Shown here: piece by piece, positions 4,058 to 63,648 of the stretch
Position numbering within the stretch: the first letter of the stretch is position 1
Layout of the letters: every line of letters begins with the position of its first letter
NCBI GenBank assembly: GCA_038065715.1
Contig: JBBTQL010000004.1
Coordinates: forward strand, 35,693 to 99,692
Reading direction: 5' to 3'
DNA from: Patescibacteria group bacterium
Lineage (GTDB): Bacteria; Patescibacteriota; Minisyncoccia; Minisyncoccales; Staskawiczbacteraceae
Length of the DNA: 64,000 nt
The notes under the pieces: model-generated
What the model saw: only the letters and a program-made list of their open reading frames with translations
The model's database searches: none
Told to the model about the DNA's origin: nothing
Translations under genes and position numbers: made by a program

Positions 4058-5057
4058 ATTTTTTAAAAAGTTTTAATTTAATTAATAATACAATTGCGGC
4101 TGAAATTATAGTTATAATTAAGGCTGTTAAAAATAAAAACCAAGGATTTGCCCCGCTAAAACTTTCGTTGGCAGTTTGGCTTATTGCGTCATTAATGCTT
4201 GCTGTTTTTAAATTTTCATCAACTTTATTACTATTACCAGATTTTTTAGAATTAGACAATATCTCTAAAACAATAATATTTGCAGTTCCCGGGGTAAGGG
4301 TCTTACTCCATTGCCAGCCTGCCTGCGCGGGCAGGCCATTATTCGTTTTATTGTAAGATTGGCCGAGAGGCGCCTTTGTGAGAGAAACTAAATCAATGGT
4401 TTTGCCATCGGGAGTTAACAAATTTAAGCCGTCCCCATCATTGTTCAGTATTATTTTAGTGTCTTGTCTTTTAAAAACTAAATATCCATTGGCAGATATT
4501 TTTACCTGCCTGCCTTCAGGCAGGTATTTAGAAATTGTAAAAGCCGTAATTGTGCCTGCTGTATCTTTTATTTGCCAGTTTGATAAATCAACTTCAAAGT
4601 TATTTGCGTTATATAATTCAATCCATTCGTTTGTTTCGTCTGCGCCTTCTGGTGAAGGCAAAATCTCATTTATAAAAATTCCGCTCGGATAAATTATCGC
4701 GCGTGTTGCCTCTGTCGTGTTTTGTGTATTTAAATTTTGAGAATTAGGATTTGTTTCGGATTTAGAATTTTGAATTTCGGATTTTTCGCCTACATAGGCG
4801 AGCCCCTGGTCTTTTATTTTTTGTAAAGTTTTTTCTCCTATTCCTTTAACTTTTATCAAATCGTCAACAGATAAAAATGGTCTTGCCTCTATTATTCTTT
4901 GCGCCAATACCGGCCCTATGCCAATTATCTCATCTAATTGCGCCAATGAGGCGGTATTTATTTCCACCTTATCTGCCCGCGCAGACAGGTCTGCCGCCAA
5001 AATAAGAGGCGGGCAAAAAGAAAAAACTAATAAAAAAATAATAAATATATTTTTCAC
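4044..5057 (-). CDS. ComEA-like helix-hairpin-helix DNA-binding protein fused to a lamin-tail domain, with a C-terminal TM anchor
   Basis: N-terminal signal/TM segment. HhH repeats INTASLAQLDEIIGIGPVLAQRIIEARPF and VKGIGEKTLQKIKDQG. Middle region INEILPSPEGADETNEWIELYNANNFEVDLSNWQIKD (lamin-tail-domain-like). C-terminal hydrophobic helix. Confidence 0.6.
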   Translation of the reverse strand: MKNIFIIFLLVFSFCPPLILAADLSARADKVEINTASLAQLDEIIGIGPVLAQRIIEARPFLSVDDLIKVKGIGEKTLQKIKDQGLAYVGEKSEIQNSKSETNPNSQNLNTQNTTEATRAIIYPSGIFINEILPSPEGADETNEWIELYNANNFEVDLSNWQIKDTAGTITAFTISKYLPEGRQVKISANGYLVFKRQDTKIILNNDGDGLNLLTPDGKTIDLVSLTKAPLGQSYNKTNNGLPAQAGWQWSKTLTPGTANIIVLEILSNSKKSGNSNKVDENLKTASINDAISQTANESFSGANPWFLFLTALIITIISAAIVLLIKLKLFKKYVGT

Positions 5058-6581: not shown

Positions 6582-7913
6582 CTAACCAGCTGGCTGCTCT
6601 TCGTCTTCCTCGACAACCCTCAAAACTTCTTCTAATGTTGTATCTCCTAAAACAACATCAATTAAACCCGACTGGTACATTGTGACCATCCCCTTTTTGA
6701 TGGCTAATTCCCTAATTGATGAAACTGGAGGATTAGTTAAAATAAATTTTTCCATTTGCGAGTCTACTAAAAATACTTCAAATAATCCCTGCCTTCCTTT
6801 ATATCCTGTAAAGTTGCAAGCCTCGCACCCTTTTTCTTTTGTTTTTGCAATTTGTATTTTATTTAAATCAGGAAGGATAATATCGTTGGGCAGATTTTTT
6901 AACCCTTTTTTTATTTCAGATAATTCGCTTGCAGTCGGCTTTGCAAGGGTTGAGCATTTTTTGCATACTTTTCTTACCAATCTTTGGGCTACTGTCATTT
7001 TTAATCCTGATGCGATTGATGACGGTTCTGTGCCTAGGTCCACAAGCCTTGGAATGGTGCCAGCAGCGTCATTAGTATGTAAAGTTGATAATACCAAGTG
7101 GCCAGTTAAAGCCGCTTGCAGGGCTATTTTAGCGGTTTCAAGGTCTCTAATTTCACCAACCAATATAACATCGGGGTCTTGCCTTACTATTGACCTTAGC
7201 CCGTCTGAAAAGTCATATCCTTTTTCTGGAGCCACTTGTGTTTGAGAAACGCCTTTTAAGTGATATTCAATCGGGTCCTCAATTGTGATAATTTTAATTT
7301 CTGGATTTTGAATCTTCATTAAAAAAGCGTAAAGAGTAGTTGTTTTTCCAGAACCCGTAGGACCTGTAACAATTATCATTCCATTGGGCTTTTCAATTTC
7401 TTTTTGAAAAATTTTATATAAATCTTTTCTTAATCCTAAAGAATCTAACCCAATTAAATTTTTTGGATTTAAAATTCTCATTACAATTGATTCGCCATAT
7501 TCAGCCGGCAGGCTGGAAGTTCTTATTTCTATTAATGAGTCCTCAATTTCTATGGTAAACCTTCCGTCTTGCGGCTTATCTGTGATATTTAATTTAAGCC
7601 TAGAGAGAAGCTTTAATCTGGAAATTAAGCTGTGATATATTTTTTCGTCAAAAAAAACAACGTCCTGTAAGACGCCGTCTAACCTTATTCTTAACCTTGA
7701 GTTATTTTCCTGCGGCTCTATATGTATATCAGAAGTATCAAGCGCTATGGCTCCAAACAAAATAACATCTAAAAGATTTGTGGTATTTTGCGTTATGTAT
7801 TCTTCTATCTTTGCTTTAAAATTGGAAATACTTTTAACATCTTTTTTTACTTCAACTATAACATCTTTTGAAATAGCTACGGTTCCTAATAATTTTTTCT
7901 TTGTTTCATTCAT
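6582..7913 (-). CDS. pilB: Type II/IV secretion-system ATPase (PilB/GspE family)
   Basis: Walker A GPTGSGKTTTLYA. GEIRD/Asp box and His box. C-terminal CxxC. 443 aa. Confidence 0.8.
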   Translation of the reverse strand: MNETKKKLLGTVAISKDVIVEVKKDVKSISNFKAKIEEYITQNTTNLLDVILFGAIALDTSDIHIEPQENNSRLRIRLDGVLQDVVFFDEKIYHSLISRLKLLSRLKLNITDKPQDGRFTIEIEDSLIEIRTSSLPAEYGESIVMRILNPKNLIGLDSLGLRKDLYKIFQKEIEKPNGMIIVTGPTGSGKTTTLYAFLMKIQNPEIKIITIEDPIEYHLKGVSQTQVAPEKGYDFSDGLRSIVRQDPDVILVGEIRDLETAKIALQAALTGHLVLSTLHTNDAAGTIPRLVDLGTEPSSIASGLKMTVAQRLVRKVCKKCSTLAKPTASELSEIKKGLKNLPNDIILPDLNKIQIAKTKEKGCEACNFTGYKGRQGLFEVFLVDSQMEKFILTNPPVSSIRELAIKKGMVTMYQSGLIDVVLGDTTLEEVLRVVEEDEEQPAG

Positions 7914-8748
7914 TTTTATTAAAAATATTATTTTTTATTTCTTTTAAGTCGGCTCCCGTTTTCATTAAAAGCCCGGCAGTTTCAAAAATTTCCTGCGTTG
8001 TTTTTGAATTTCCAAAATTTTCTGTGTAAATTGCCAGTCCTGCCAAAAAGCAGTTGGCAGCCTGTTTTTTTACCCCGTTAGAAAGCCCATCTTTTGAGGG
8101 TTCCTTATTGGATGGGTCGTATGGCCCCGGTTGCTCAAGCTTTCTATCGGGGTTTACAAGATTTAACGCCATCTCTGACAAAGAATAATCTCTTATTATG
8201 TTTATTCTACCAAAGTTTTGGTTTTTTGTCCCGACTTCGTCGAGGATGCTCGATGGCGAAGCCATCGGCACACTTTCACTATCTATATTTAAAATAAGAG
8301 AATCCAGTAAAAACCCATAAGAGTTAAGCTTGCCAGCCAATTCAGTTTTAAAATCTTTTATTCCTAAAGTTATTGTAAGGTCTGGTTTTGTTTCTGAAAA
8401 ATAAAATAAGAGGTTTTCTTTTTTTATATTTCCCCTGTCAATCATTAAATGAATTTTTAATCCTTCTTCATTTTTTTCGTAGTAAACCTGCGAGATTTCA
8501 GCTGTTTTTTGAGGAATTGAAATCACAAAGTTTTTTGGATATGAAATATGGCCTAAGCTAGGCAATAAAAATCGAAATTTTTCTGGAAATTCTTCTATTA
8601 TTAAGTTTACATTTTTATTTAATTCTTTTAAAGTATAAAAAAGAGCCAAAGCAACTGGAATGCTTTCGCCATTTGGGTTATCATTTGGAATAATGCAGAT
8701 ATTTTTTGCTTCAGAAATTAATTGCTTTGCTTCTTGCGGTATTTCCAT
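7906..8748 (-). CDS. Hypothetical protein, possibly a degenerate DHH-family phosphoesterase, carrying a GC-palindrome insertion
   Basis: N-terminus ICIIPNDNPNGESIPVALALF resembles DHH motif I/II but lacks the catalytic His. Overlaps pilB by 8 nt. Palindromic element at 8228-8271 lies in-frame. Confidence 0.35.
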   Translation of the reverse strand: MEIPQEAKQLISEAKNICIIPNDNPNGESIPVALALFYTLKELNKNVNLIIEEFPEKFRFLLPSLGHISYPKNFVISIPQKTAEISQVYYEKNEEGLKIHLMIDRGNIKKENLLFYFSETKPDLTITLGIKDFKTELAGKLNSYGFLLDSLILNIDSESVPMASPSSILDEVGTKNQNFGRINIIRDYSLSEMALNLVNPDRKLEQPGPYDPSNKEPSKDGLSNGVKKQAANCFLAGLAIYTENFGNSKTTQEIFETAGLLMKTGADLKEIKNNIFNKNE

Positions 8749-8796: not shown

Positions 8797-9312
8797 TTGT
8801 GGATTATGAGAAATAAAATTATAACAAAAAGTTTTAAAGAAACTCAAAAAATTGGCGAGAAATTGGCAGATGAAATTTTGAAATTACTGCCGCAAAAAAG
8901 CGCAATAATTTTAGGTTTGAACGGAAACCTTGGGGGAGGCAAAACAACCTTCTTGCAAGGTTTTGCAAAAGGGCTGGGAATTAAAGAAAAAATATTAAGC
9001 CCCACCTTTGTAATTTACAAAAAGTTTATTATTTCACCAATACTTATAAATAAGCGTACGCAGAATTTGGAGTATCGCCAATTTTATCACTTTGATTGCT
9101 ATCGCATAAAAAATTACAAAGACTTTTTGGCGATAGGATTTTCCGCCCAAGGCGGACCAGCCTCGGGCTGGAAAGAAATAATTTCAAACCCAAAAAATAT
9201 TGTGGCAATTGAATGGCCAGAAAAAATTAAAAAGATTTTTCCAAAAACTGCCGTAAAGATAAATTTTAAATTTATCAACGAAAGCGCAAGAGAGTTGACA
9301 ATTAATAAATAA
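8797..9312 (+). CDS. tsaE: tRNA threonylcarbamoyladenosine biosynthesis ATPase TsaE
   Basis: P-loop LGLNGNLGGGKTTFLQGF. SPTF and HFDCYRI motifs of the YjeE/TsaE family. In-frame GC insert at 9143-9171. Confidence 0.75.
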   Translation: MWIMRNKIITKSFKETQKIGEKLADEILKLLPQKSAIILGLNGNLGGGKTTFLQGFAKGLGIKEKILSPTFVIYKKFIISPILINKRTQNLEYRQFYHFDCYRIKNYKDFLAIGFSAQGGPASGWKEIISNPKNIVAIEWPEKIKKIFPKTAVKINFKFINESARELTINK

Positions 9313-11619: not shown

Positions 11620-12513
11620 ATGCCAGAGCTTCCAGAAGTAGAAACAACGGTGCGCGGTTTAAATTCAAAGGTCCTAAAAAGGGCCTTTGTTGATGTGTGG
11701 TCAGATTGGGAAAGAATAATTAAAAAACCAGACAATTTTGAAGTTTTTAAAAAAAATATAAAAGGTAAAAAAATAGAAAAAATATGGCGCCGCGCTAAAA
11801 ATATTATTTTTGATTTATCTGAAGAAAGTTCTCTTTTAATCCACCAAAAAATGACAGGCCATCTTTTGCATGGAACATGGAACATAAAACATGAAACATG
11901 GACGCCGGCTGAAAAAGGTCCATTGAATGACCCGATGAATCGTTTTATTCATTTAATATTTTTTTTAGACAATGGAAAAATGCTCGCTTTGTCTGATGCA
12001 AGAAAATTTGCCAAAGTTGAATTATGGAAAACAGAAGAATTATTAAAAGAATTTGATAATTTAGGGCCAGAACCGCTGGACAAAAATTTTACTTTTGAAA
12101 AGTTTAAAGAAAGATTGTTGCGGCAAAACCCGCCTTCGCCAAGGCTTCGGCGGGGCAAAGTAAAACAGGTTTTAATGAATCCAGAAATAATTGCAGGCAT
12201 TGGAAATATTTATTCTTCAGAGGCATTGTGGCATGCAAAAATACATCCAGAAAAAGAAATCCAAAAATTAAATGGCAAAGAACTAAAAAATATTTATAAT
12301 TCTATTAAAAAAGTTTTAGAGTTGGGGGTGAAATTGGGAGGAGAAAGTTTCTCAGACTACAGAAAACCAGACGGCAGCAAAGGAAATTTTGACACAGAAA
12401 GAAGGGCTTATAAAAGGGAGGGGCAAAAATGCCATAGATGCGGGACAAAAATAAAAAGAATAAAATTTGGCGGCAGAAGCGCATTTTTTTGCCCCCACTG
12501 CCAAAAACTATGA
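11620..12513 (+). CDS. mutM: Formamidopyrimidine-DNA glycosylase (Fpg/MutM)
   Basis: MPELPEVETTVRGL N-terminus with catalytic Pro2/Glu3. C-terminal zinc finger CHRCGTKIKRIKFGGRSAFFCPHCQ. GC insert at 12129-12155. Confidence 0.85.
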   Translation: MPELPEVETTVRGLNSKVLKRAFVDVWSDWERIIKKPDNFEVFKKNIKGKKIEKIWRRAKNIIFDLSEESSLLIHQKMTGHLLHGTWNIKHETWTPAEKGPLNDPMNRFIHLIFFLDNGKMLALSDARKFAKVELWKTEELLKEFDNLGPEPLDKNFTFEKFKERLLRQNPPSPRLRRGKVKQVLMNPEIIAGIGNIYSSEALWHAKIHPEKEIQKLNGKELKNIYNSIKKVLELGVKLGGESFSDYRKPDGSKGNFDTERRAYKREGQKCHRCGTKIKRIKFGGRSAFFCPHCQKL

Positions 12514-12526: not shown

Positions 12527-13331
12527 TAGAGACCCGATCTCGCACAACTCACACAAAAAAATACTATGCCATATAGAAAAGAACAATTTGTGAACGGAGA
12601 TATTTATCACATTACCAATAGAGCAATTGATGATAACTTAATTTTTAAAGATAAAAACGATTATTATCGCGGTATTTTTTCTATTTATGAATTTAATAAT
12701 GAAAAACCTGTGAATATATCTAATAGAAGACGAGATCGGATTGTCGAAAAAGAAAGAGAAAAACCGTGTGAGACCGGGTCTCATGCGAAGCTTTCTTCGG
12801 ATGAAAGGGAAAAGTTGGTGGATATTTTTGCATTTTGTTTTATGCCAAATCATATTCATCTTTTGGTAAAACAGCTGGAAGATAATGGAATAACTAATTT
12901 TATGAAAAAAGTCGGCATAGGATATGGAGGTTATTTTAATAGAAAATATCAGCGCAAAGGTTATGTTTTCCAAAACAGATTTAAATCAGTTCACATAGAG
13001 AATGACAATCAATTTATGGTGGTTGTGCCGTACATATTTACAAATCCCACCGCATTAATAGAGCCAGGGTGGAAAGGACAGGGGATCAAAAATCACTCCA
13101 CCAAAGAGGTGCTTAAATTTTTAGAAGAATACAAGTGGTCAAGTTATCAAGATTGTATTGGAATTAAGAATTTTGATTCTGTCACACAAAGAGATTTTTT
13201 ATTAGAAATGATGGCAGGCAAACAAGGTTGTAAAGACGCAGTTGAAAATTGGATAAAAAATAAAGTCGAAATTGGACAGCACGCAAATATTTTATTAGAT
13301 TAAAAACCGTGTGAGATCGGGTCTCACACAG
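12527..13331 (+). mobile_element. IS200/IS605-like (REP/RAYT-like) element: Y1 HUH transposase flanked by subterminal hairpins
   Basis: Left hairpin-forming end tagagacccgatctcgcacaactcacaca (12527-12555). Right end ccgtgtgagatcgggtctcacacag (13307-13331). Hairpin ends rather than classical inverted repeats fit IS200/IS605. A third copy of the right-end hairpin lies inside the transposase ORF at 12764-12787. Confidence 0.5.
12566..13303 (+). CDS. tnpA: IS200-like Y1 (HUH) transposase
   Basis: HUH motif MPNHIHLLV. Tyr region GYGGYFNRKYQRKGYVFQNRF. DIYHITNRA N-terminal motif. 245 aa. Confidence 0.6.
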   Translation: MPYRKEQFVNGDIYHITNRAIDDNLIFKDKNDYYRGIFSIYEFNNEKPVNISNRRRDRIVEKEREKPCETGSHAKLSSDEREKLVDIFAFCFMPNHIHLLVKQLEDNGITNFMKKVGIGYGGYFNRKYQRKGYVFQNRFKSVHIENDNQFMVVVPYIFTNPTALIEPGWKGQGIKNHSTKEVLKFLEEYKWSSYQDCIGIKNFDSVTQRDFLLEMMAGKQGCKDAVENWIKNKVEIGQHANILLD

Positions 13332-19034: not shown

Positions 19035-21083
19035 TTAAGGTGAAGGGTCAATAGCTGGTGGATTATTTATTAAATCTCTAATTTCTGCCGCTCTTTCAAA
19101 GTCTAAATTTTTAACGGCTATTTTCATTTCTTTTTCCAGTAATTTCCTGTCGTGTACTGCCCAAAATTCTTCTGAAACAACTTCTTTTTTTGAAAAACCC
19201 CAATCGCGTATGTCTTTTATTATTGCTTTTGGATTTATTTTATTTTTTTTATTGTAAGCTATTTGTATTTTTCTTCTTCTGTTTATTTCGTCAATGGCTG
19301 ACTGCATAGAAAAAGTAGTTTTGTCTGCATATAAAATAACGCGCCCCTGAAGGTGCCTTGCGGCCCTGCCCATTGTTTGTATTAAGGTTGTTTTATTTCT
19401 TAAAAAACCTTCTTTGTCAGCGTCTAAAATTGCAACCAATGAAACTTCGGGCAGATCAATCCCCTCTCTTAGAAGATTTATTCCAACTAAAACATCGTAT
19501 TTTCCCTCTCTTAAATCTTTTAAAATTTTAGGCCTTTCCATTGTTTTTATTTCAGAATGCAGATATTGGGTTTTGATTCCTCTTTCAATTAAATAATCAG
19601 AAATTTCTTCTGCCAATCTTTTTGTTAAAGTTACAACTAAAACCCTATGTTTTTTAGCAGTTTCTTTTTTAATTTCTTTTATTAAGTCTTTAATTTGATT
19701 CTCGGTTTTTTTGATTTCAATTGATGGTTCTAATAATCCGGTTGGCCTTATAAGCTGTTCAACAATATTTTTGCCTGATTTGTGTTTTTCATAATCGGCT
19801 GGAGTTGCTGAAACATAAATTGTCTGCCCGCCTGCAACGGCTATGCCGTAGGCATTGCGGGCAGGCTTTTGCCTTTTTTCAAATTCTGCAAAAGTTAAAG
19901 GCCTGTTATCAACTGCAGAGGGCAAACGAAATCCAAAATCAATTAAAGTTTCTTTTCTTATTTTATCTTGAACCGACATAGCGCGAATTTGCGGAATTGA
20001 AATATGCGACTCATCAATAAAAATTAACGACCCTTTAGGATTGAAGTAATTAAAATAATCAACCAAAGAAAATGGAGCTTCGCCATGTTTTCTAAATTCC
20101 AAATGCCTTGAATAGTTTTCTATTCCATGGCAAAAGCCAACCTCTTGCATCATCTCTACGTCATAATTTGTTCTTTGCCCTAATCTTTCTGCTTCCAGTA
20201 ATTTTTTTTGTTCATTTAATTTTTTTAGCTGTTCGTGCAATTCTAATTTTATATTTTCTATGGCTATATTTATTTTGTCTTTTGGAGCCACCCAAAAAGT
20301 TGCGGGGAATAGACATAAATTTGAAATTTGAAATTTGAAATTTGAAATTTCGATATTTTTATCGTTAGTTTTTTTTCTGTAAATTTTTTTTATAATATCA
20401 TTGCCAAATTCAATTCTAATAATTTCTTCGCCTGTTACTAAAAATATATCTATAATATCTCCCCTGACACGAAAAGTGGCTGGCTTAAAATCCCAGCCCG
20501 CATTGCTACGCGAAGCGTTGCTGGCGGGAATATCATTTCTTTTATATTGCAAAGCTATAAGATGTGAAATAAATTCTTTGCGTTTTATTTTTTGCCCGGG
20601 GTTTATATCCAAAGAAACATTTTGATAGTTTTCAGGCGAGCCAATATTATAAATGCACGACACAGAAGCCACTACAATTACATCTTTACGCGACAGAACA
20701 TCTTGAACTGCCGAATGCCTTAACCTGTCAATTTCTTCATTTATTTTTGCATCCTTTTCTATATATGTGTCTGATTGCGGGATATAGGCTTCGGGCTGGT
20801 AATAATCATAATAAGAAACAAAGTAATGCACGGCGTTGTTTGGAAAAAATTCTTTAAATTCCTGGTAGAGCTGGGCAGCTAAAGTTTTGTTTGGAGAAAT
20901 AACTAAAGTAGGTTTTTGGATTTTTTGTATAACATTAGCTAATGTGAAAGTTTTGCCCGAGCCAGTAACGCCTAAAAGCACCTGGTCTTTTACGCCATGT
21001 TTGAGATTATTAGTCAGTTCTCTTATTGCTCGTGGCTGATCTCCGGTAGCTGAGAATTTAGATTTTAATTTAAAGTTGGTCAT
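19035..21083 (-). CDS. uvrB: Excinuclease ABC subunit B UvrB
   Basis: Helicase motifs GVTGSGKT and DESH. C-terminal UVR domain. 682 aa. Heptamer array at 20317-20351 is in-frame (NFKFQISN). Confidence 0.9.
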   Translation of the reverse strand: MTNFKLKSKFSATGDQPRAIRELTNNLKHGVKDQVLLGVTGSGKTFTLANVIQKIQKPTLVISPNKTLAAQLYQEFKEFFPNNAVHYFVSYYDYYQPEAYIPQSDTYIEKDAKINEEIDRLRHSAVQDVLSRKDVIVVASVSCIYNIGSPENYQNVSLDINPGQKIKRKEFISHLIALQYKRNDIPASNASRSNAGWDFKPATFRVRGDIIDIFLVTGEEIIRIEFGNDIIKKIYRKKTNDKNIEISNFKFQISNLCLFPATFWVAPKDKINIAIENIKLELHEQLKKLNEQKKLLEAERLGQRTNYDVEMMQEVGFCHGIENYSRHLEFRKHGEAPFSLVDYFNYFNPKGSLIFIDESHISIPQIRAMSVQDKIRKETLIDFGFRLPSAVDNRPLTFAEFEKRQKPARNAYGIAVAGGQTIYVSATPADYEKHKSGKNIVEQLIRPTGLLEPSIEIKKTENQIKDLIKEIKKETAKKHRVLVVTLTKRLAEEISDYLIERGIKTQYLHSEIKTMERPKILKDLREGKYDVLVGINLLREGIDLPEVSLVAILDADKEGFLRNKTTLIQTMGRAARHLQGRVILYADKTTFSMQSAIDEINRRRKIQIAYNKKNKINPKAIIKDIRDWGFSKKEVVSEEFWAVHDRKLLEKEMKIAVKNLDFERAAEIRDLINNPPAIDPSP

Positions 21084-21181: not shown

Positions 21182-21787
21182 ATGATAGCATTTTTATCGG
21201 GTAAAATTTTATTAAAAAAGGACAAGTTTATCATTCTTGAAGCAGCTGGCGTTGGCTACAAAGTTTTTTTAAATCAGCAAACCCTATCCCGACTCGATCG
21301 AGGATCCTCGACGACTTCGTCGTCGGGATTAAAATTATCAGAAATAGGGCAGGATGTAAAGCTATTTTGCTTCCAAAATATAAAAGAAGATGCTTCGGAT
21401 TTATATGGGTTTTTAAGTTATGACGAGCTTGATTTTTTTGAGGTGCTAAACGATATTCATGGCGTAGGGCCAAAAGCTGCTTTGGAAATTTCTGTGTTAG
21501 GCCCCTTAGAAAAAATTAAGGACAGAATTTTAGCGCAGGACGAAAAAATATTTGAAGGAATTCCCGGAATTGGTTCAAAAAGGGCGTCGTCAATTATTTT
21601 AGAATTGACCGGAAAAATAATGGCGAAGTCCGCCTTTGCTAAAGCTTCGCCAGACGAAGCAGAAACCGCTTTAACCCAGCTTGGTTTTTCAAAACAGCAA
21701 GCAAAGGATGCCCTGGCTCGCGTGCCTGTTGCTGTTAAAAATTCTGAAGACAGAATAAAATTAGCGCTTAAAAATTTAGGAAAATAA
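21182..21787 (+). CDS. ruvA: Holliday junction DNA helicase RuvA
   Basis: MIAFLSGKILLK...GVGYKVF domain I. HhH motifs DIHGVGPKAALEI / GIPGIGSKRASSIIL. 40-nt GC palindrome at 21288-21327 is in-frame. The ORF track's upstream start (21098) is probably spurious. Confidence 0.8.
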   Translation: MIAFLSGKILLKKDKFIILEAAGVGYKVFLNQQTLSRLDRGSSTTSSSGLKLSEIGQDVKLFCFQNIKEDASDLYGFLSYDELDFFEVLNDIHGVGPKAALEISVLGPLEKIKDRILAQDEKIFEGIPGIGSKRASSIILELTGKIMAKSAFAKASPDEAETALTQLGFSKQQAKDALARVPVAVKNSEDRIKLALKNLGK

Positions 21788-22770: not shown

Positions 22771-24039
22771 GTGTTAGATTGGGTAAATATGAGGATAAAA
22801 GAAGCAGTTAAAAAAATATTAGGCAGAAATTTGTTGGGTTTTTATCATTATGGCATGGCTTTTTTGGGAGCTGTGATTTTTGGTTTTCCATCTAAAAATT
22901 TAACTGTTATAGGGGTTACAGGCACCAGCGGTAAATCAACTACTTCTGATTTTATCACAAGAATTTTAGAAGAACCCTTCGACGGGGCCCAGGGCAGGTC
23001 TGGCAATAAGGTGGCTTCAATTTCAACAATAAGATTTAAAATTGCAGAAAAAGAATGGGAAAATAAATATAAAATGACAATGCCCGGCCGTTTTGTTATT
23101 CAAAAGTTTTTAAGGCAGGCAAAAAAAGCAGGATGCAAATTTGTGGTTTTAGAAGTTACTTCGCAAGGCATTGAACAATATCGCCATAAATTTATAAATT
23201 TTGATACAGCTGTTTTTACTAATTTGTCGCCAGAGCATATTGAAAGCCATGGCAGTTTTGAAAATTACAGAAACGCAAAACTAAAACTATTTCGAGCAAC
23301 AAAAAACATCCATATTATAAATACTGATGACGCAAATTCAAAATATTTTTGGAATATTCCGGCAAAACAAAAAATTGGATTTTCAGCCAAAGATGCGCAA
23401 AACGCTAATTTAAAATTAAATTTAATTGGAGACTTTAATATTTTAAACGCCTTAGCGGCAATTTCTGCGGCAAAGGCATATGGCATTGATTTTAGCATTT
23501 GTAAAAGGGCGCTGGAAAAGGCCAAAGGAATTTCTGGCAGAATGGAAGTGATTCAAAAAGAGCCATTCAAAGTTATTGTTGACTATGCTCATACTCCAGA
23601 ACAACTCGAAAGTGTCTATAAGGCACTTTCTCAAAACCCAAAACCTCAAACTCCAAACCCCAAACTTATTTGTGTGCTTGGAAGTTGCGGCGGGGGAAGG
23701 GATAAATGGAAAAGGACTGTTTTAGGAGAAATTGCAAATAAATATTGCGACAAAATATTTATAACCAATGAAGATCCATATGATGAAAACCCCAACCAGA
23801 TTTTATCTGAAATAAAATCTGGAATTATCAATTCTCAATTTCCAATTTCCAATTTATATGAAATTTTAGACCGTAAAGAGGCAATTAAAACTGCAATAAA
23901 ATTAGCAAAATCAGATGATATTGTTATAATCACTGGCAAGGGTTCAGAATCCTGGATGTGCATAGCAAACGGTAAAAAAATCCCCTGGGACGACAGGCAA
24001 ATCGCTAAAGATGCGTTGGGGCTCCAAACCTTGACATAG
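22771..24039 (+). CDS. Mur ligase family protein (MurE/MurF-like central and C-terminal domains)
   Basis: P-loop VIGVTGTSGKSTT. DYAHTPEQLESVY. N-terminal TM helix. Three in-frame repeat inserts (22975-23005; 23634-23665; 23829-23856). Confidence 0.7.
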   Translation: MLDWVNMRIKEAVKKILGRNLLGFYHYGMAFLGAVIFGFPSKNLTVIGVTGTSGKSTTSDFITRILEEPFDGAQGRSGNKVASISTIRFKIAEKEWENKYKMTMPGRFVIQKFLRQAKKAGCKFVVLEVTSQGIEQYRHKFINFDTAVFTNLSPEHIESHGSFENYRNAKLKLFRATKNIHIINTDDANSKYFWNIPAKQKIGFSAKDAQNANLKLNLIGDFNILNALAAISAAKAYGIDFSICKRALEKAKGISGRMEVIQKEPFKVIVDYAHTPEQLESVYKALSQNPKPQTPNPKLICVLGSCGGGRDKWKRTVLGEIANKYCDKIFITNEDPYDENPNQILSEIKSGIINSQFPISNLYEILDRKEAIKTAIKLAKSDDIVIITGKGSESWMCIANGKKIPWDDRQIAKDALGLQTLT

Positions 24040-24059
24040 ATGCTTTAATATGATATGAT
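24031..24059 (+). promoter_or_regulatory. Promoter TTGACA-N17-TATGAT of the DGR-A target gene, conserved with DGR-B
   Basis: ttgaca 24031-24036, 17-nt spacer, tatgat 24054-24059. The same hexamers and spacing occur at 61998-62025. Confidence 0.45.
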
Positions 24060-24218
24060 TAATAATATAGCTCTTTTTTATTGTTACTTGCGAAATTGGC
24101 AGTTATAGCCAAAAGCTACTGAATTATATCGGTATCTTCTGGCTATGACTGCTATGTCGGTACGTCAAGCAGAAACCAGCCTGTCATAATTGGCGGGCAA
24201 AACAGAAAGGAGATTGTC

Positions 24219-24878
24219 ATGGCTGTGCAAGTCATTGGCGATCTATATGTGGAGTTGGATGGGAAGTTGGCGGAGATTAAGCGGCAAATGAGGCAGCAGG
24301 GAGGCTATCCGTTTGACCCGGAGAAATTAAACAAGTTTCTCCAACTAGCTGTCGAGGGCAGGTTCAACGACAACCGGTGCTGGTGCGAGAAGGAAGGAGT
24401 GATCTACTTTGAGGTCACCTCTGACGGCACGACTGGACCCCAATGGATTGAGCGTCTGGAGAAGAAGGGTATCCAGCTCTCCAAGTGGGCCAAGGACGTC
24501 CTGCTGTCTCCGGACTTCAAGCCGACCAACGGCGTGACCACCGAGATCGCTGTCCTCAAGGGCGCGCTTTTTATGGACAATGATCGCATCACGTCTAAGA
24601 TCCGCGCTGAGGCCGACAAGCGCAAGCTCGTCAAGCCCGAAGCCGAACTCGGTTGCCTTATCCGCGACACGTTCACGGACGAGGAAATCGAAGCCATGGG
24701 TCTTGTGTGGATCGTGGCGTTCCACGAGCCCATCAAGGACTCTGACGGCGATCCGACGTTGCTCGGTGCGCGTCGCCTTGGCGATGGCCGTTGGCTGCGC
24801 GCGTGCTGCGGCCTGCCCGACCGCAGGTGGCTTCGCGACCGTGGCTTTGCCTTCGCCGTCTCGCAAGTATCTTCGTAA
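24219..24878 (+). CDS. DGR variable (target) protein A, with the variable region at its C-terminus
   Basis: SD aaaggagattgtc then ATG. 219 aa, ~57% GC. The C-terminal 42 codons are the VR matched by TR-A. Confidence 0.75.
   Translation: MAVQVIGDLYVELDGKLAEIKRQMRQQGGYPFDPEKLNKFLQLAVEGRFNDNRCWCEKEGVIYFEVTSDGTTGPQWIERLEKKGIQLSKWAKDVLLSPDFKPTNGVTTEIAVLKGALFMDNDRITSKIRAEADKRKLVKPEAELGCLIRDTFTDEEIEAMGLVWIVAFHEPIKDSDGDPTLLGARRLGDGRWLRACCGLPDRRWLRDRGFAFAVSQVSS
24741..24866 (+). repeat. DGR-A variable repeat (VR)
   Basis: 126 nt aligned to TR-A (25208-25333). Mismatches fall essentially only where the TR has A (e.g. TR aatcgcaatgac vs VR cgtcgccttggc). The 3' end ggctttgccttcgccgtctcgcaa is identical (IMH-like). 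Confidence 0.8.
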
Positions 24879-25207
24879 GTCCTTTGGGCTTGAGCCTTTG
24901 CTCTAGCCCTTGGATCCTCTGCCCTTTGCATTTCCTCACGGACTTGCACTGGGCAGATTTTTTTTGCTAAAATATAAATGGTAATAGGTGAATCTTGCGG
25001 GAGATCAAGGTTTCCCGCGGCCGAATCCAGTATTCGTATGCTGAGAGCGTTTGCGATTAAGGTTGCAAACGGAGGGCATACGAATTACTTTCAAAAAAGA
25101 AGATACTTGGCGTGGGAAACTAGGGCATTACGATGCCGAATTCGATACAGCCCTGTGATCGTAAAACTACTTCAAGGGGCAGTGGCATAGATGGTTTCTT
25201 GCGTATT

Positions 25208-25333
25208 TCTGACGGCGATCCGAACTTGCTCAGTGCGAATCGCAATGACGATGGCCATTGGCTGAACGCGTACTACGACAAGCCCGACAACAGGTGGAAT
25301 CGCGACAATGGCTTTGCCTTCGCCGTCTCGCAA
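25208..25333 (+). repeat. DGR-A template repeat (TR)
   Basis: Non-coding copy of the VR, rich in AAC/AAT codons (…AACGCGTACTACGACAAGCCCGACAACAGGTGGAATCGCGACAAT…). Confidence 0.8.
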
Positions 25334-25339
25334 CTCTCT

Positions 25340-25699
25340 TCATTTCTCTCCTTGCTTAGGAGAGTTTTGTTTAATAATTTGTCCCGACCAACCACCGAGC
25401 ATTTTGCCAATTTCATCTAGTTTCAATGATAGAGCAATATATTTTTTGTTATCCAATGATTTTGTTTCCCAAAGAATCATTAAAAATATTTTTAACGTAT
25501 CGACCTTTCTAATTGCTAAACGTACATAGGACAATTTTTCTGATTGCCCAAGAAAACTTGCAGTCACTATTGCCTCTATTGCTTCAACAAAAAGTTTATC
25601 AATTTTTTCACCAAGAGAATATTTATGTATTTTTGGTATAATTAAATAGTGTTGGTACCAAAAAAGATAAGCTTCTTTCAACTTTTGCAAAACAGGCAA
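25340..25699 (-). CDS. avd: DGR accessory variability determinant Avd-A (TTG start)
   Basis: 120 aa. ...KYSLGEKIDKLFVEAIEAIVTASF...KLDEIGKMLGGWSGQIIKQ matches Avd four-helix-bundle proteins (compare Bordetella bAvd ...EVGRILGSWIARVNRK). Starts at TTG 25697-25699 just downstream of the C10 tract, as in copy B. The ORF track's longer start (25834) runs through the homopolymer. Confidence 0.7.
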   Translation of the reverse strand: MPVLQKLKEAYLFWYQHYLIIPKIHKYSLGEKIDKLFVEAIEAIVTASFLGQSEKLSYVRLAIRKVDTLKIFLMILWETKSLDNKKYIALSLKLDEIGKMLGGWSGQIIKQNSPKQGEK

Positions 25700-25705
25700 C
25701 AGTCT

Positions 25706-25715
25706 GGGGGGGGGG
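25706..25715. repeat. Homopolymeric G10 (C10 on the avd strand) in the avd/RT divergent intergenic region
   Basis: agtctGGGGGGGGGGattaaaag. The equivalent position in DGR-B has G7. Confidence 0.9.
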
Positions 25716-25739
25716 ATTAAAAGCTGAGTTATTTTGATT

Positions 25740-26726
25740 ATGAAAATTACTTTGCAACATAAATACGAAGACATCATAAGCGTTGAGAATATTTTGGAAG
25801 CATGGCAAGAGTTTCTTCTCGGCAAAAGAAACAAGCCCGATGTTCAAGAATTTTCTCTCTGTCTGATGAATAATGTTTTTAATTTGCACAACGACTTATC
25901 CAATCATACCTACAAACACGGAGGCTATCAACAATTTAAAATTAACGACCCAAAGCCAAGAACAATCCACAAAGCCAGCGTAAAAGACAGATTATTGCAC
26001 CACGCAGTATATCGTATATTATACCCGTTTTTTGATAAAAAGTTTATTGCAGACTCTTTCTCTTGCAGAAACAACAAAGGCACTCATAAAGCATTAAACA
26101 AATTCAGGGAGTTCAGCTATATTGTTTCCAAAAACAACACAAACACCTGCTGGATTTTAAAATGCGACATAAAAAAGTTTTTTGCCAGCGTTGATCAGCA
26201 GATACTAATTAAAATTTTAGAAAAATATATTTCAGAAAAAGATATTATCAACTTTCTAAAAGAAATAATTTTTGGTTTTAAACCCAATGGTTTGCCTCTC
26301 GGTAATTTGACTTCCCAGTTGTTCGCAAATGTTTATCTGAATGAATTTGACCAGTTTGTAAAACACAAATTGAAAGTAAAATACTATATTAGGTATGCCG
26401 ATGACTTCGTAATTTTATCAGAGAACAAAAATTATTTAAAAAACATAATTCCAGAGCTAAAATATTATTTAAAAAACAATTTAAAACTGGAAATTCATCC
26501 AAATAAAATTTTTATTAAAACATTGAATTCTGGCGTTGATTTTTTAGGCTGGATTAATTTTACAGATCATAGAGTTTTAAGGACAAAAACTAAAAACAGA
26601 ATATTAAAGAGAATAAAAAATAATTCAAGTATTGAAACATTAAATTCTTATTCGGGTTTGTTAAAACATGGAAATATGAACAAAATGATTAAGAAATTAT
26701 TTAAGGAAACGGAGATTGCTTTTTAA
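25740..26726 (+). CDS. DGR reverse transcriptase A
   Basis: RT motifs including GLPLGNLTSQLFANVYLNEFD (DGR-type motif 4) and YIRYADDFV (YxDD). 329 aa. Nearly identical to the partial RT at 63686. Confidence 0.85.
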   Translation: MKITLQHKYEDIISVENILEAWQEFLLGKRNKPDVQEFSLCLMNNVFNLHNDLSNHTYKHGGYQQFKINDPKPRTIHKASVKDRLLHHAVYRILYPFFDKKFIADSFSCRNNKGTHKALNKFREFSYIVSKNNTNTCWILKCDIKKFFASVDQQILIKILEKYISEKDIINFLKEIIFGFKPNGLPLGNLTSQLFANVYLNEFDQFVKHKLKVKYYIRYADDFVILSENKNYLKNIIPELKYYLKNNLKLEIHPNKIFIKTLNSGVDFLGWINFTDHRVLRTKTKNRILKRIKNNSSIETLNSYSGLLKHGNMNKMIKKLFKETEIAF

Positions 26727-26734: not shown

Positions 26735-27031
26735 GTGTTAGAATTAAAAATCATGAAAAATTCAAAATCTGTTAAGAAATTTATTAGGACGCAAAAGGCG
26801 CAGATTAGGCGCCAGTTTTTTGATGTGAAAAAACAAGAAGCTGAAATAGCAGAGTTATATAAAAAAGTGGCAGGAACTGTGGTGGCGAAATCCTTCGACG
26901 CGGCTCAGGACGATGCTTCTACATTGAAAGCAGAAGTTAAAAAACCTGCCCGCAATGCTTCGCATAGCGATGCAGGCGGGGAGAAATCGAGAAAAGAAAT
27001 AAAGAAACAAAAGCTAAAAGTTAAATCTTAA
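26735..27031 (+). CDS. Small basic hypothetical protein carrying GC inserts
   Basis: 98 aa, K/R-rich. CCTTCGAC-family insert at 26891-26912 encodes KSFDAAQDD. Confidence 0.4.
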   Translation: MLELKIMKNSKSVKKFIRTQKAQIRRQFFDVKKQEAEIAELYKKVAGTVVAKSFDAAQDDASTLKAEVKKPARNASHSDAGGEKSRKEIKKQKLKVKS

Positions 27032-28282: not shown

Positions 28283-28561
28283 ATGCCAAAAGAAGAAAAA
28301 GCCCTGCCTGCCGTCAGGCAGGCAATTGGCAAAATTACTCACTATTTTTCTAATATAGGCGTGGCGGTTATTGATATTTCTGGTGTTTTAAAAGAAGGCG
28401 ATAGCATTAGAATTACAGGCGGAGAGAATACAGACTTTGAGCAAGAAGTTGATTCTATGCAGGTTGACCACAAGGAAGTAAAAACTGCCAAAAAAGGAGA
28501 TTCTGTGGGATTAAAAGTAAAAGAAAAAGTCAGAGAGGGATATAGCGTTTATAAAATTTAA
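28283..28561 (+). CDS. Hypothetical protein (small beta-barrel-like)
   Basis: 92-aa ORF after the terminated sRNA. No recognisable motifs. Confidence 0.4.
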   Translation: MPKEEKALPAVRQAIGKITHYFSNIGVAVIDISGVLKEGDSIRITGGENTDFEQEVDSMQVDHKEVKTAKKGDSVGLKVKEKVREGYSVYKI

Positions 28562-28653: not shown

Positions 28654-29085
28654 ATGGCAGAAAATATACAAGAAAAGATAGAAAATAAAATTATTGATTT
28701 AATAGCATTGGGAGCAGGAGGAAGGCTTATAGTTTTTAAGCCCCAAAATTCCTTCGGGCGTAGCTCGCAGCCGTTAGCTTACGAGCGAGGCCCAACGGGC
28801 GAGCCAACGGGCGAGGCGGATAAAGATTTGGTTGTAGAAAAAAAGGGCGATTATAAAAAAAAGCCGATTTTTTTAAAAATTTACGATAAAAAACTTTTTG
28901 ATAAAGTTTTAGCAGATAAGGATAAGGATAAAAACTTTTATTTAATTTTTGCGCGTTTTGACATCGTAAAGCAAGATATTGAAGACGAAATTTTTATTGT
29001 TTCATCCGTTGATTCAAAAAAGATTATAATGAGTAAAAAAGATTTTGTCAGATTTCTATTAGAAAAATTTGAAAAAAGAGAATAA
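28654..29085 (+). CDS. Hypothetical protein with a 70-nt GC-rich insert
   Basis: 143 aa. Insert at 28750-28820 encodes NSFGRSSQPLAYERGPTGEPTGEA within otherwise K/I/D-rich sequence. Confidence 0.4.
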   Translation: MAENIQEKIENKIIDLIALGAGGRLIVFKPQNSFGRSSQPLAYERGPTGEPTGEADKDLVVEKKGDYKKKPIFLKIYDKKLFDKVLADKDKDKNFYLIFARFDIVKQDIEDEIFIVSSVDSKKIIMSKKDFVRFLLEKFEKRE

Positions 29086-29087: not shown

Positions 29088-30386
29088 ATGAAGTTTGCAG
29101 CTGATTTTCATATACACTCAAAATATTCAAGAGCCACTTCCCCTTCAATGGACTTGGAAAATTTAGATAAATGGGCAAAAATTAAAGGCATTAAGGTTTT
29201 AGGAACAGGAGATTTTACTCATCCTGGTTGGCTTAAGAATTTAAAAGAAAAATTGAGCCCCGCTGAGCGGGGTCTTTTTTGCGCCCAAGGCGCATCCGCC
29301 TTGGGCGCAAAGCTTAATGATAATTTTGCTACTAGGTTTTTACTTACAGCTGAGATTAGCTGTATATATTCTAAGGCTGGTAAAGTTAGAAAAATCCATA
29401 TTATAATTTTTGCCCCCTCATTTGAGGCAGTAGAAAAAATTAATTTAAAACTGGGCCAAATTGGAAATTTAAAAGCAGATGGCAGGCCTATTTTAGGCCT
29501 TGATGCAAAAGAATTGGCTAAAATTATTTTTGACGCAGATGAAAATTGCATGGTTGCGCCGGCTCATATGTGGACGCCATGGTTTTCTGTTTTCGGTTCA
29601 AAATCAGGCTTTAATTCAATGGAAGAGTGTTTTGAAGAATATTCAAAATATATTTACGCTGGCGAAACTGGTTTGTCTTCTGACCCGGCAATGAACTGGC
29701 GGCTTTCACAATTAGATAAAATTACCTTGATTTCTAATAGCGACGCCCATTCCCCCAGTAAAATCGGTAGAGAAGCGAATTTTTTTGATACAGAAATGAG
29801 TTATATTGGGATAATAGACATAATAAAAAACCCCATTAGAAAGCCTTCGGCTTCTAACGGGGCAAGGTTTTTGTATACAATAGAATTTTTTCCAGAAGAA
29901 GGAAAGTATCATTATGACGGCCATAGGTCGTGCGACATAAGATTATCTCCGCAAGAATCAAAAAGATATAACAATATTTGCCCAAAATGCCAAAAACCTC
30001 TTGTTATTGGAGTTTTAAACAGAGTTGAGGAGCTGGCTGATAGGCCTGAAGGATTCCAGCCAGAAAATGCTGTACCTTTTAAAAGCTTAATTCCATTAGA
30101 AGAAATAATCGCTGAATCTATCGGCGTTACGACTGCGTCAAAACAAGTCGCTAAATTTTATAATAATTTAATAAAAAATATAGGCAGCGAGTTTAAAATT
30201 TTGTTAGAAGCAGATAAAGAAGAAATTAAAAAAATAAGTTTGCCTGCCATTGCAGAAGGTATTATAAAAGTTAGGGAAGGGAAAATTTATATTGAGCCGG
30301 GTTACGATGGAGTCTATGGAAAAATAAAAATTTTTGCAAAACCAGAGGAAAAAAAATTTTTATTTTCACAAAAAACATTATTTTAA
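29088..30386 (+). CDS. EndoQ-like PHP-domain endonuclease (TIGR00375 family)
   Basis: MKFAADFHIHSKYSRATSPSMDLENLDKWAKIKGIKVLGTGDFTHPGW closely matches the EndoQ N-terminus. C-terminal zinc finger CPKCQKP. 432 aa. Confidence 0.6.
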   Translation: MKFAADFHIHSKYSRATSPSMDLENLDKWAKIKGIKVLGTGDFTHPGWLKNLKEKLSPAERGLFCAQGASALGAKLNDNFATRFLLTAEISCIYSKAGKVRKIHIIIFAPSFEAVEKINLKLGQIGNLKADGRPILGLDAKELAKIIFDADENCMVAPAHMWTPWFSVFGSKSGFNSMEECFEEYSKYIYAGETGLSSDPAMNWRLSQLDKITLISNSDAHSPSKIGREANFFDTEMSYIGIIDIIKNPIRKPSASNGARFLYTIEFFPEEGKYHYDGHRSCDIRLSPQESKRYNNICPKCQKPLVIGVLNRVEELADRPEGFQPENAVPFKSLIPLEEIIAESIGVTTASKQVAKFYNNLIKNIGSEFKILLEADKEEIKKISLPAIAEGIIKVREGKIYIEPGYDGVYGKIKIFAKPEEKKFLFSQKTLF

Positions 30387-36424: not shown

Positions 36425-36916
36425 ATGCCAAAAGAAAAGTCAGCTGGAGTTATAATTTTTAGACGGGAACCCTTCGACCCGGCTCAGGGTAAAAAATCTG
36501 ATATTTTTTACCTGCTTTTGCATTATGCTCCGTCTGAGCCGGGAAAACATGGACACTGGGGGTTTGCAAAAGGGCATATTGAAAAAGGCGAAACAGACGA
36601 AGAAACAGCTAAAAGAGAAGTCGCTGAAGAAACTGGCATTAAAGACCTAAAAATAATTTCTGGATTTAAAGAATTAGAAAAATATTTTTTTAGGCAGGTT
36701 TACGGGCTAAAGGGCGAAGCAAGAAAAAAAGCGCCGTGGGTTTTCAAATCAGTTGTATTTTTTTTAGCTGAAACAAAAATTAAAGATGTTAAAATTTCAG
36801 AAGAACACGCTGGTTTTTTGTGGCTGGCTTACGGAGATGCTGTTAGAAAAATAAGTTTTAAAAACTCAAAAGAGCTATTAAAAAAAGCAAATGAATTTTT
36901 AGAAGAAAACAAGTAA
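36425..36916 (+). CDS. NUDIX hydrolase
   Basis: Nudix box GHWGFAKGHIEKGETDEETAKREVAEETGI. In-frame GC insert at 36470-36490 (EPFDPAQGKK). Confidence 0.8.
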   Translation: MPKEKSAGVIIFRREPFDPAQGKKSDIFYLLLHYAPSEPGKHGHWGFAKGHIEKGETDEETAKREVAEETGIKDLKIISGFKELEKYFFRQVYGLKGEARKKAPWVFKSVVFFLAETKIKDVKISEEHAGFLWLAYGDAVRKISFKNSKELLKKANEFLEENK

Positions 36917-38037: not shown

Positions 38038-38054
38038 TTGTATTTATTATTTTA

Positions 38055-38403
38055 GTGGAAGCGCCGGGGTCGAACCCGGGTCCAGAAATTTTTTAAAAAT
38101 AAATCTACAAATTTATCTTGCTTTGTTGTTTGGATATTAAATAAGAAGCAAGAAAAATGTTTAATATCCTAATTCTCGTAAATCTCGACAGTTCCCCGAG
38201 AAATAAAACTGCCTATCCTGAAAATATAACACCCTCGGTCCATTTATCAGGAGTCAATGGCGAGGATGCAGCATTAAGCTAAAGCTAGTGCTGGTTGCCT
38301 ATTAAATAAATTAGCAATTATGTTTTTTCTATAAGTTTAACCAGGTTATAGAAAACTGGATTTGCATATTTTTAATGAAACATCTGTCAAAACTTACGCT
38401 CCC
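38055..38403 (-). ncRNA. ssrA: tmRNA (SsrA)
   Basis: 3' end GGACCCGGGTTCGACCCCGGCGCTTCCA (T-arm + acceptor) at 38056-38083 on the minus strand. 5' GGGAGCG at 38397-38403 pairs with the 3' CGCUUCC to form a 7-bp acceptor stem. Candidate tag reading frame gct aat tta ttt aat agg caa cca gca cta gct tta gct taa gives (A)NLFNRQPALALA* (plus 38274-38315). Lies immediately downstream of smpB. Confidence 0.65.
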
Positions 38404-62014: not shown

Positions 62015-62025
62015 ATATGCTATGA
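61998..62025 (+). promoter_or_regulatory. Promoter TTGACA-N16-TATGAT of the DGR-B target gene
   Basis: ttgaca 61998-62003 (inside the leuS 3' end) and tatgat 62020-62025. Matches the DGR-A promoter. Confidence 0.45.
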
Positions 62026-63642: not shown

Positions 63643-63648
63643 CAGTCT

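Follow-up and report, generated by a model that had tools for sequence, protein, structure and literature searches.

A family of 36- and 42-nucleotide double-hairpin DNA elements with in-frame copies in essential genes of a Patescibacteria genome

The stretch of DNA analyzed here (hereafter the window; 64,000 nucleotides of contig JBBTQL010000004.1, all coordinates being those of the window) belongs to a Patescibacteria (Parcubacteria) group bacterium of the Staskawiczbacteraceae, close to Candidatus Staskawiczbacteria and recovered in assemblies of Hainich groundwater, and carries four copies of a small GC-rich palindromic element. These 64 kb are the part of the source genome that was covered. 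The original prediction, made from the sequence alone, placed such elements inside open reading frame (ORF) 7906–8748 and inside ruvA, argS, and leuS, and all four are present in the sequence:

8229–8270, plus strand: copy A, 42-nt double-hairpin element, antisense to its host ORF 7906–8748 (minus strand), where it encodes VPMASPSSILDEVG
21287–21328, plus strand: copy C, in domain I of ruvA, in sense, encoding SRLDRGSSTTSSSG
41150–41191, plus strand: copy B, in argS, where the DALR anticodon-binding domain begins, in sense, encoding SRFHRGSSMAKPSG
61452–61493, minus strand: copy D, in leuS, encoding about PTVSPSRTRDEVG

All four window copies are genic, each is exactly 42 nt long, and each keeps the reading frame and adds 14 residues to its host protein; the limits given in the original prediction (42–44 and 40 nt) are revised accordingly. 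On the plus strand the short hairpin leads in copies A, B, and C, and the long hairpin leads in copy D. The leuS copy, formerly set apart as a related version, is the same element inverted, its reverse complement matching copy A at 33/42 positions, including a compensatory stem change. Pairwise identity among the four copies is 30–36/42; "nearly identical" thus describes the closest pair (8229/41150, 36/42) and not the rest. The GC content of the copies is 52–74%, a value above 65% applying to one copy only, and that of the host genes is 33–39%. The core pattern has two matches in the window and none in 100 shuffles, and a structure-based scan of the window recovers these four loci only (four copies vs. 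zero expected), with no single isolated hairpins of the family. The proposal that the four copies belong to one repeat family is supported.

Each element consists of two abutting bulged hairpins in inverted architecture, with zero spacer. Hairpin 1 (18 nt) comprises T-N-C, CGAY, a 3-nt loop, RTCG, a bulged A on the 3′ side, and G-N′-A; hairpin 2 mirrors this order (T-N-C, a bulged T on the 5′ side, CGAY…RTCG, and G-N′-A). Hairpin 2 is either 18 nt or, with a stem 3 bp longer, 24 nt, which gives a 36-nt form (two 18-nt hairpins) and a 42-nt form. Lengths are quantized at these values, with 55 copies of 36 nt and 33 of 42 nt among the unique copies of the genome scan (see below), and 108 copies of 36 nt in a metagenome set.

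In ungapped alignments, standard pairs fill 97.9% of cells for the 42-mers and 98.7% for the 36-mers; the observed pairing and covariation score were matched in none of 500 shuffles, and pairing falls to 19–49% in slid registers. The clamp pair of hairpin 2 occurs as all four Watson–Crick types (CG 26, GC 15, UA 8, AU 2), and the pairs of the extended stem occur as GC, CG, UA, and AU. The search patterns fixed columns 2–6, 12–19, and 21–25. In a prospective test of covariation, by which a metagenome scan was run with position 2 forced to be non-C and position 17 left free, the Watson–Crick partner was present at position 17 in 117 of 130 unique copies. Variation is free in the loops and at one base pair of each hairpin, and the stem sequence is strongly conserved over two phyla. 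G·T pairs account for 5 of 1,334 cells in the genome-scan alignments; their near-absence, together with the occurrence of copies in both orientations in ORFs, indicates a constraint on both strands (DNA) rather than on one transcript. A process in which one arm serves as the template for the other would have the same effect.

Comparison with orthologues identifies the copies as insertions. The ArgRS insert is absent from the closest of 120 orthologues (P0002, at 81% identity, P0031, and P0034), in which FGNFKF runs directly into QISN in place of SRFHRGSSMAKPSG. At the DNA level, for which the empty-site comparison concerns one site (argS), the filled site differs from the empty site in the syntenic locus L001 by exactly 42 added nucleotides, with zero duplicated target bases. 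The closest LeuRS orthologue (P0242, 82% identity) lacks the 14 residues at the site of copy D, RuvA of locus L122 lacks exactly the 14 residues SRLDRGSSTTSSSG, and the L122 homologue of ORF 7906–8748 has approximately 12–14 fewer residues at the point of copy A. In window RuvA, the RuvA_N profile (61 positions) is stretched over 76 residues; ORF 7906–8748 has no Pfam hit. No element copies were found in four genomes related to that of the window, over approximately 80 kb of their sequence. The 14 residues missing from the closest orthologues bear out the reading of the copies as in-frame, lineage-specific insertions.

ORF 7906–8748 differs from its L122 homologue (1134–2246) in other respects as well: it encodes 280 aa vs. 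370 aa, with the C-terminal ~90 residues missing, and contains a second GC-rich insert (8110–8152) of approximately 17 residues.

These comparisons also bear on two explanations that would dispense with insertion, namely that the segments are ancestral protein features, or that they are sequencing or assembly artefacts such as a linker or adapter. The core TCGAGGATCCTCGA does resemble a cloning linker, with BamHI- and TaqI-like sites, and the sole paper that contains the core string is an unrelated Clostridium study. The attempt to refute the insertions on these grounds, as the original prediction had proposed, leaves them standing, given that close orthologues lack the segments and that the same protein occurs on several contigs from separate sources. 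The insert-bearing ArgRS is recorded on four contigs (NCBI and ENA sources), and neighboring genes are found again on five to six contigs; an assembly artefact is therefore unlikely. There are, in addition, compensatory changes between copies, and the element-bearing metagenome-assembled genomes (MAGs) come from many unrelated projects. We regard both explanations as refuted by these points, with a negligible chance of being correct.

The inserts appear to be tolerated where they fall. In the AlphaFold2 model of window ArgRS (mean predicted local distance difference test score, pLDDT, 90.3), residues 442–456, which correspond to the insert, form the only long stretch below 50, and are modeled as coil between two helices of the anticodon-binding domain; the ArgRS insert is thus predicted to be a disordered loop. 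The same ArgRS and LeuRS loops hold other, unrelated inserts in some orthologues. Both results agree with the expectation that the elements lie in permissive surface loops. Retention of function by the host proteins despite the inserts is inferred from the essentiality of the genes. Copies usually have 5–6 stop-free frames out of six, vs. 3.4–3.6 for composition-matched shuffles. Copies within ORFs use all three frames and are about equally often sense and antisense, and no frame or orientation preference was found when one was looked for in ORFs. Because the length is a multiple of three and five or six frames are usually open, most genic hits merely add 12 or 14 residues.

The family extends far beyond the window genome. 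An exact-pattern scan of one genome per species gave more than 115 loci in 78 species genomes, vs. approximately four matches expected by chance (calculated for uniform base composition); this and the following counts from the scan are among the matches listed, and are lower bounds. Nearly all of the genomes are Patescibacteria (at least 50 of 78) or Chloroflexota (18 of 78, mostly Dehalococcoidia, plus Thermoflexus), although a few element-bearing MAGs have doubtful taxonomic labels, and a single genome has up to eight loci. The element is therefore not specific to the lineage of the window. No Rickettsia genome is among the 78 in the matches listed, and one contig matched among 2.9 million IMG/VR viral contigs. 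Carriers among the matches listed include the following:

Patescibacteria: Saccharibacteria and Paceibacterota
Patescibacteria, candidate groups: Liptonbacteria, Sungiibacteriota, Wildermuthbacteria, Magasanikbacteria, Daviesbacteria, Yanofskybacteria, Nealsonbacteria, Brennerbacteria, Staskawiczbacteria, Jorgensenbacteria, Harrisonbacteria, and Portnoybacteria

Copies can be nested within one another: twice in locus L066 a 36-mer lies between TCGAG and GATCC of a 42-mer, and in L060 a hairpin lies inside the loop of another copy. Nested copies share the same termini. This recurrence of one structure bears on the alternative that each element arose de novo by local mutation (template switching, hairpin-primed repair synthesis, or PolX-type fill-in), the copies resembling one another by convergence. 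Such a process would suit the many unrelated GC-rich hairpin inserts of 15–48 nt that differ between the window and L001 in both directions, the gathering of different inserts in the same protein loops, and the presence of a PolX gene in the genome. It does not suit a specific sequence of at least 20 positions that recurs in 78 genomes (among the matches listed), far beyond chance, nor lengths quantized at 36 and 42 nt, nor nested copies with the same termini. We therefore consider local mutation highly improbable, and close to refuted for the double-hairpin family.

The 36-nt unit length also invites comparison with guide-RNA units of a TIGR-Tas or CRISPR-like system, the more so as TIGR-Tas systems occur in Staskawiczbacteria and have dual-repeat tigRNAs of 36 nt (bioRxiv 10.64898/2026.09.09.750476). 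The copies described here, however, are solitary or nested rather than arrayed, have no variable spacer pairs, lie inside housekeeping ORFs, and have freely varying loops and hence no conserved box C/D motif. There is scarcely any likelihood that they are guide-RNA units, an explanation that these features refute.

Using a crude test for genic copies (at least 40 codons open on both sides), 35 of 119 copies (29%) lie in long ORFs, vs. 65% of random positions in the same loci, and the remaining 84 of 119 (~70%) lie outside them, vs. 35% of random positions. By this measure most members of the family appear to lie between genes, with fewer in genes than expected, contrary to the original prediction of an element specialized in genes. 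Genic hosts elsewhere are Mur ligases, PolX, an IleRS-type synthetase, LeuRS, UvrA, UvrC, UvrD, Mfd, LigA, a Pif1-like helicase, and LepA; the Mur ligase copies occupy the same loop in three genomes, in differing frames.

Some copies are embedded in larger repeats. In Saccharibacteria CAYJTN01 (L051, L067, L073, L075, L084, and L089), the 36-nt core is inside a conserved AT-rich repeat of approximately 150 nt with TTTAGGA/TTTAGAA-type heptamers, a unit far longer than the core that is situated just upstream of gene starts. At Chloroflexota loci (L019, L046, L060, L018, L072, and L101), the core lies within other hairpin-repeat clusters, such as CCCCTCTTAAG-TAAGAGGGG; in three Chloroflexota-type genomes, a GGAG-N-ATG start follows the core directly, at a site that seems to be orthologous, and in Thermoflexus the core is enclosed in an outer inverted repeat (TCCTCTCC…GGAGAGGA).

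The flanks of the copies tend to have TTG before the element, and C or T followed by A-rich sequence after it. G occupies position −1 in 73–76% of copies and T occupies positions −2 and −3 in approximately 60%; in the four window copies, position −1 is T, A, G, and A. The flank logo contains no GTAG or CGTC tetranucleotide at the element ends. AT-rich heptamer arrays surround many copies in other genomes, and 10 of 81 copies have exactly the same heptamer unit on both sides, or 23 of 81 when up to two mismatches are allowed (vs. 6 of 81 in the control). Heptamer arrays in the window are as follows:

11869–11902: heptamer array
20317–20350: heptamer array in uvrB
23836–23855: heptamer array
41192–41211, plus strand: (CAAATTT)n array in argS that abuts copy B, the same unit being present on the left side too
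61023–61055: heptamer array in leuS

The 7-nt direct repeats were considered as a target-site duplication and rejected, given that the argS heptamer array pre-exists in the empty site of L001; it is therefore a target or companion of the element, and not a duplication made by insertion. The window arrays are perfect or near-perfect (e.g., AAATTTG × 4.9, AAATTTC × 4.7). Those in essential genes are translated as …ISNFKFQISN…, the LeuRS array replacing a conserved DPKNNKKLAD segment, and similar arrays are found in many ArgRS and LeuRS orthologues.

A functional cis-acting motif would account for part of this pattern. On such an account, the element would be a folded DNA or RNA binding site for a host protein common to Patescibacteria and Chloroflexota, with a role in nucleoid organization, recombination, transcript stabilization, termination, or 5′ untranslated region control; selection would maintain it, its spread would be due either to natural transformation or to recombination between the heptamer arrays at its flanks, and its genic copies would be tolerated by-products. 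The conservation of the stem over two phyla, while the loops and one pair per hairpin vary, fits this account, as do the placement of the Saccharibacteria core within its conserved repeat just upstream of gene starts and the apparently orthologous site directly before the start codon in the three Chloroflexota-type genomes. Recombination into arrays is likewise consistent with the heptamer-flanked copies (exact and near matches exceeding the control) and with the array in the argS empty site. Conversely, copies in ORFs favor neither an orientation nor a frame, the near-absence of G·T pairs argues against an RNA-only role, copies occur at arbitrary places in unrelated housekeeping genes, some copies are nested, close relatives have none, and neither the window nor eight element loci have an Rfam match at the element. 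We judge a cis-acting motif unlikely. Termination in particular is rejected, in that none of the four window copies, on inspection of the sequence, is trailed by the T-run that a terminator needs.

The window encodes one candidate for an enzyme that could move the element, a RAYT-like (REP-associated tyrosine transposase, REP denoting repetitive extragenic palindromic sequence) Y1 transposase of the HUH type:

12529–12541: hairpin on the upstream side of the Y1 gene, GAGA-CCCGA-TCTC, in inverted orientation to the downstream one
12566–13303, plus strand: RAYT-like HUH Y1 transposase gene (245 aa, PF01797)
13309–13329: downstream hairpin flanking the Y1 gene, GTGTGAGA-TCGGG-TCTCACAC; orthologous loci have the same loop and covarying stems

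The HUH motif of the Y1 protein is the HIH of FMPNHIHLL, and the tyrosine lies in PYIFTNP. Its sole NCBIfam match is REP_Tyr_transpos (REP-associated tyrosine transposase), at 41.9 bits, which is below the cut-off of 80. The AlphaFold model (pLDDT 82.6) has as its best PDB fold 4ER8, the Escherichia coli RAYT on a REP hairpin (E 2.8e-6), and matches IS608 and ISDra2 TnpA at E ~5e-4. Orthologues are 60–82% identical, comparable to ArgRS orthologues of the same lineage, and the gene order fpg–Y1–holA is kept in loci L121 and L122 of two other species (61–65% identity). This conserved synteny implies vertical inheritance, and the sequence comparisons fit a domesticated, single-copy, vertically inherited gene. 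Bulged hairpins are the substrates recognized by HUH Y1 enzymes in structural work on IS608 and RAYT. The Y1 transposase is the only candidate in the window for the mobilizer of the element, and we propose it tentatively, as a possible but rather unlikely assignment.

The hairpin arrangement at the Y1 gene is common to orthologous loci L120, L121, and L122 (around position 10000), with another Y1-type hairpin 5 kb off in L121 (4628–4652). A third hairpin (12765–12787), inside the Y1 ORF of the window, encodes KPCETGSH in a loop with pLDDT below 50. The Y1 hairpin loops and the ends of the element seemed to have a CCCGA/TCGGG pentamer in common, but this was discarded as evidence: the 3′ end of the element is TCGG-N-A, with N freely covarying, and the 5′ CCCGA is imposed by the search pattern. 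Downstream of Y1 in L122 (12338–14383), a single 681-aa call combines RVT_1 with a DNA polymerase III delta C-terminal domain, which suggests that a reverse-transcriptase element has been inserted into holA or fused with it.

Taking these lines of evidence together, we consider with moderate confidence that the four elements probably belong to a dispersed family of tiny non-coding REP/REPIN-like DNA palindromes that is mobile now or was so recently. This reading has direct support in the homology of the copies, their covarying structure, insertion after divergence of orthologues, the lack of a duplication in argS, nesting, the spread across phyla, and the location in loops; active transposition, a single-stranded-DNA route, and the identity of the enzyme are steps that we infer in addition. 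By this mechanism, an enzyme acting in trans would recognize the element in folded form, as single-stranded or cruciform DNA, and would move it; the element would insert without target-site duplication, in either orientation, often beside TTG and in AT-rich heptamer arrays. Given a length divisible by three and open frames, most genic hits would add only 12 or 14 Ser/Gly/Arg/Pro-rich residues, and selection would then retain only those copies that landed in disordered surface loops.

Several observations weigh against a mobile family. No transposition event was observed, and the window copies are only 71–86% identical to one another, so that none is a fresh copy of another. The very strong conservation of the stem over two phyla could reflect a host function, and some copies are at conserved positions just upstream of genes; the invariance of columns 2–6, 12–19, and 21–25 is uninformative, having been imposed by the search patterns. 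As to the enzyme, the hairpins on either side of the Y1 gene are of a different kind (CCCGA/TCGGG loops on a stem) and are not the 42-nt element. A tblastn search against 115 and 121 element loci (~0.8 and 0.66 Mb, ~1.46 Mb altogether) gave no Y1 homologue near an element, and relatives that carry a Y1 orthologue have no element copy in approximately 60 kb.

A bolder version of the mobile-family reading, which we put forward as speculative and distinctly unlikely, would make the element a smaller class of active mobile DNA than any seen so far, harmless to translation by design, and limited to Patescibacteria and Chloroflexota because the mover (a domesticated HUH or other enzyme) came from their common ancestor, or was passed between symbionts of the candidate phyla radiation (CPR) and Chloroflexota hosts. 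If this were true, the element would continue to supply new loops to the essential proteins of bacteria with reduced genomes, and would serve as a molecular marker that connects the two phyla.

Patescibacteria genomes are among the smallest and most streamlined, yet this one has repeat DNA inside the genes for ArgRS, LeuRS, and RuvA, and the family occupies other core genes. The family would keep generating indels of defined sequence in essential proteins, and would account for part of the length variation among CPR orthologues. It also calls for caution from annotators and structure predictors, to whom such Ser/Gly/Arg-rich loops would represent inserted DNA rather than function. Its defined structure, quantized size, and two-phylum range make it a tractable system for the study of REP-like movement, and it may be relevant to the relationship or contact that has been proposed for CPR bacteria and Chloroflexota. 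In agreement with the novelty claimed in the original prediction, no description of the family was found in the searchable literature, whether by the sequence itself or by RAYT/REPIN, Rickettsia palindromic element (RPE), in-frame inserts, or miniature inverted-repeat transposable elements in combination with CPR; the REP survey papers do not cover Patescibacteria. In Rfam 15, the window matches only transfer-messenger RNA (tmRNA) at gathering thresholds, and eight element loci searched at E up to 1 have nothing at the element.

The double-hairpin element is one of many families of GC-rich hairpin inserts in the window genome. Between the window and L001, nearly all coding indels of at least 9 nt are GC-rich hairpin elements, in both directions and with lengths that are multiples of three. 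The other hairpin or double-hairpin islands belong to distinct families (e.g., CCGCC-N3-GGCGG, CTGCC-N3-GGCAG, and TCTCGC-N3-GCGAGA), with several apparently in frame in genes:

4298–4347, 4503–4526, 4964–5004, 9129–9177, 12116–12162, and 19819–19874: GC-rich hairpin islands
20491–20529, 26948–26981, 28294–28332, 28749–28827, 29254–29315, and 33300–33353: GC-rich hairpin islands
33957–34028, 39053–39092, 40040–40069, 53950–53988, and 58693–58742: GC-rich hairpin islands

A further GC-rich motif, CCTTCGAC-NN-GGCYCAGG, occurs at no fewer than four places (22966–23016, 26877–26913, 36459–36493, and 33697–33714) and would encode FD-x-AQG in one frame; at least one copy is missing from L001. The window also contains two diversity-generating retroelement cassettes, each of which has a target ORF of approximately 62% GC, a minus-strand bAvd gene, and an RVT_1 reverse transcriptase, and is preceded by a conserved AT-rich promoter-like sequence:

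24219–26726: first cassette, with promoter-like sequence at 24031–24083, variable repeat at 24741–24874, and template repeat at 25208–25341
62142–64000: second cassette, with promoter-like sequence at 61998–62050, variable repeat at 62704–62820, and template repeat at 63165–63281

Variable and template repeats are 79–82% identical. The csrA gene (57699–57953) has approximately 61% GC in a 34% GC genome, an atypical composition that suggests recent acquisition. Binding of CsrA to the element was considered, given this gene and a GGA in the element core, and rejected, the GGA being in the stem and not in a loop. The tmRNA gene (38053–38403, minus strand) is of ordinary length, encodes the tag ANLFNRQPALALA, and contains no hairpin insert despite dense inserts nearby.

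Among known systems, GC clusters of yeast mitochondria and the double-hairpin or repetitive hairpin elements of fungal and sponge mitochondria are similar in form, being GC-rich hairpin islands of 30–50 nt in AT-rich compact genomes. They look mobile, are occasionally in frame in genes, and have no known transposase. The likeness is best taken as a functional analogy, given organellar hosts, sequences unrelated to the element, and no machinery known to be shared. Non-autonomous IS200/IS605 elements have hairpin-defined ends in common with the element, and insert likewise without target-site duplication, as seen here at one site (argS); both presumably lack classical terminal inverted repeats that are recognized as double-stranded DNA. 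They differ in that neither left- and right-end hairpins of the same orientation nor flanking guide or cleavage motifs could be identified for the element, and the G at position −1 (~75%) is only suggestive of a target site.

RPEs were the model named in the original prediction, and resemble the element as palindromic repeats in frame in essential genes that add a tolerated peptide. RPE-1-type elements are roughly 100–150 bp. The element is far smaller (36 or 42 nt), appears to be mostly intergenic, and is seemingly unrelated in sequence and in lineage, so that RPEs provide an analogy in effect, not the same family; in architecture the element is nearer to REP/REPIN. RPE-4 and RPE-6 have themselves been equated with CGTC-type REPs (Di Nocera et al., 2013; PMC3733652).

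The TIRYT/TIRtron arrangement, in which terminal inverted repeats border a Y1 transposase gene, has been described before (PMC3733652). The window Y1 gene, which is immediately flanked by inverted hairpins that are conserved at orthologous loci and have few copies elsewhere, resembles this arrangement; the likeness, however, concerns the Y1 gene's own hairpins and not the 42-nt element.

REP/REPIN sequences share the most with the element: they are short, imperfect, bulged palindromes, the unit of which is an inverted hairpin pair; they are mostly intergenic, as the element appears to be, with a genic minority that includes repair genes and tRNA synthetases; and the window genome has a single-copy, vertically inherited RAYT-like Y1 enzyme. 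Unlike REPs, the element has no GTAG or CGTC tag, having instead a TTG flank, and there is no REPtron, the Y1 gene adjoining another hairpin rather than members of the family. REPINs are roughly 70–110 nt, whereas the hairpins of the element abut and total 36 or 42 nt, in quantized lengths. Moreover, the element family spans two phyla, and its window copies are all genic. Intragenic REPs, notably in repair genes and tRNA synthetases, are documented (Di Nocera et al., 2013; PMC3733652). Although the element departs from the class in its tag and in the lack of a REPtron, our best reading is that REP/REPIN is the closest known kind.

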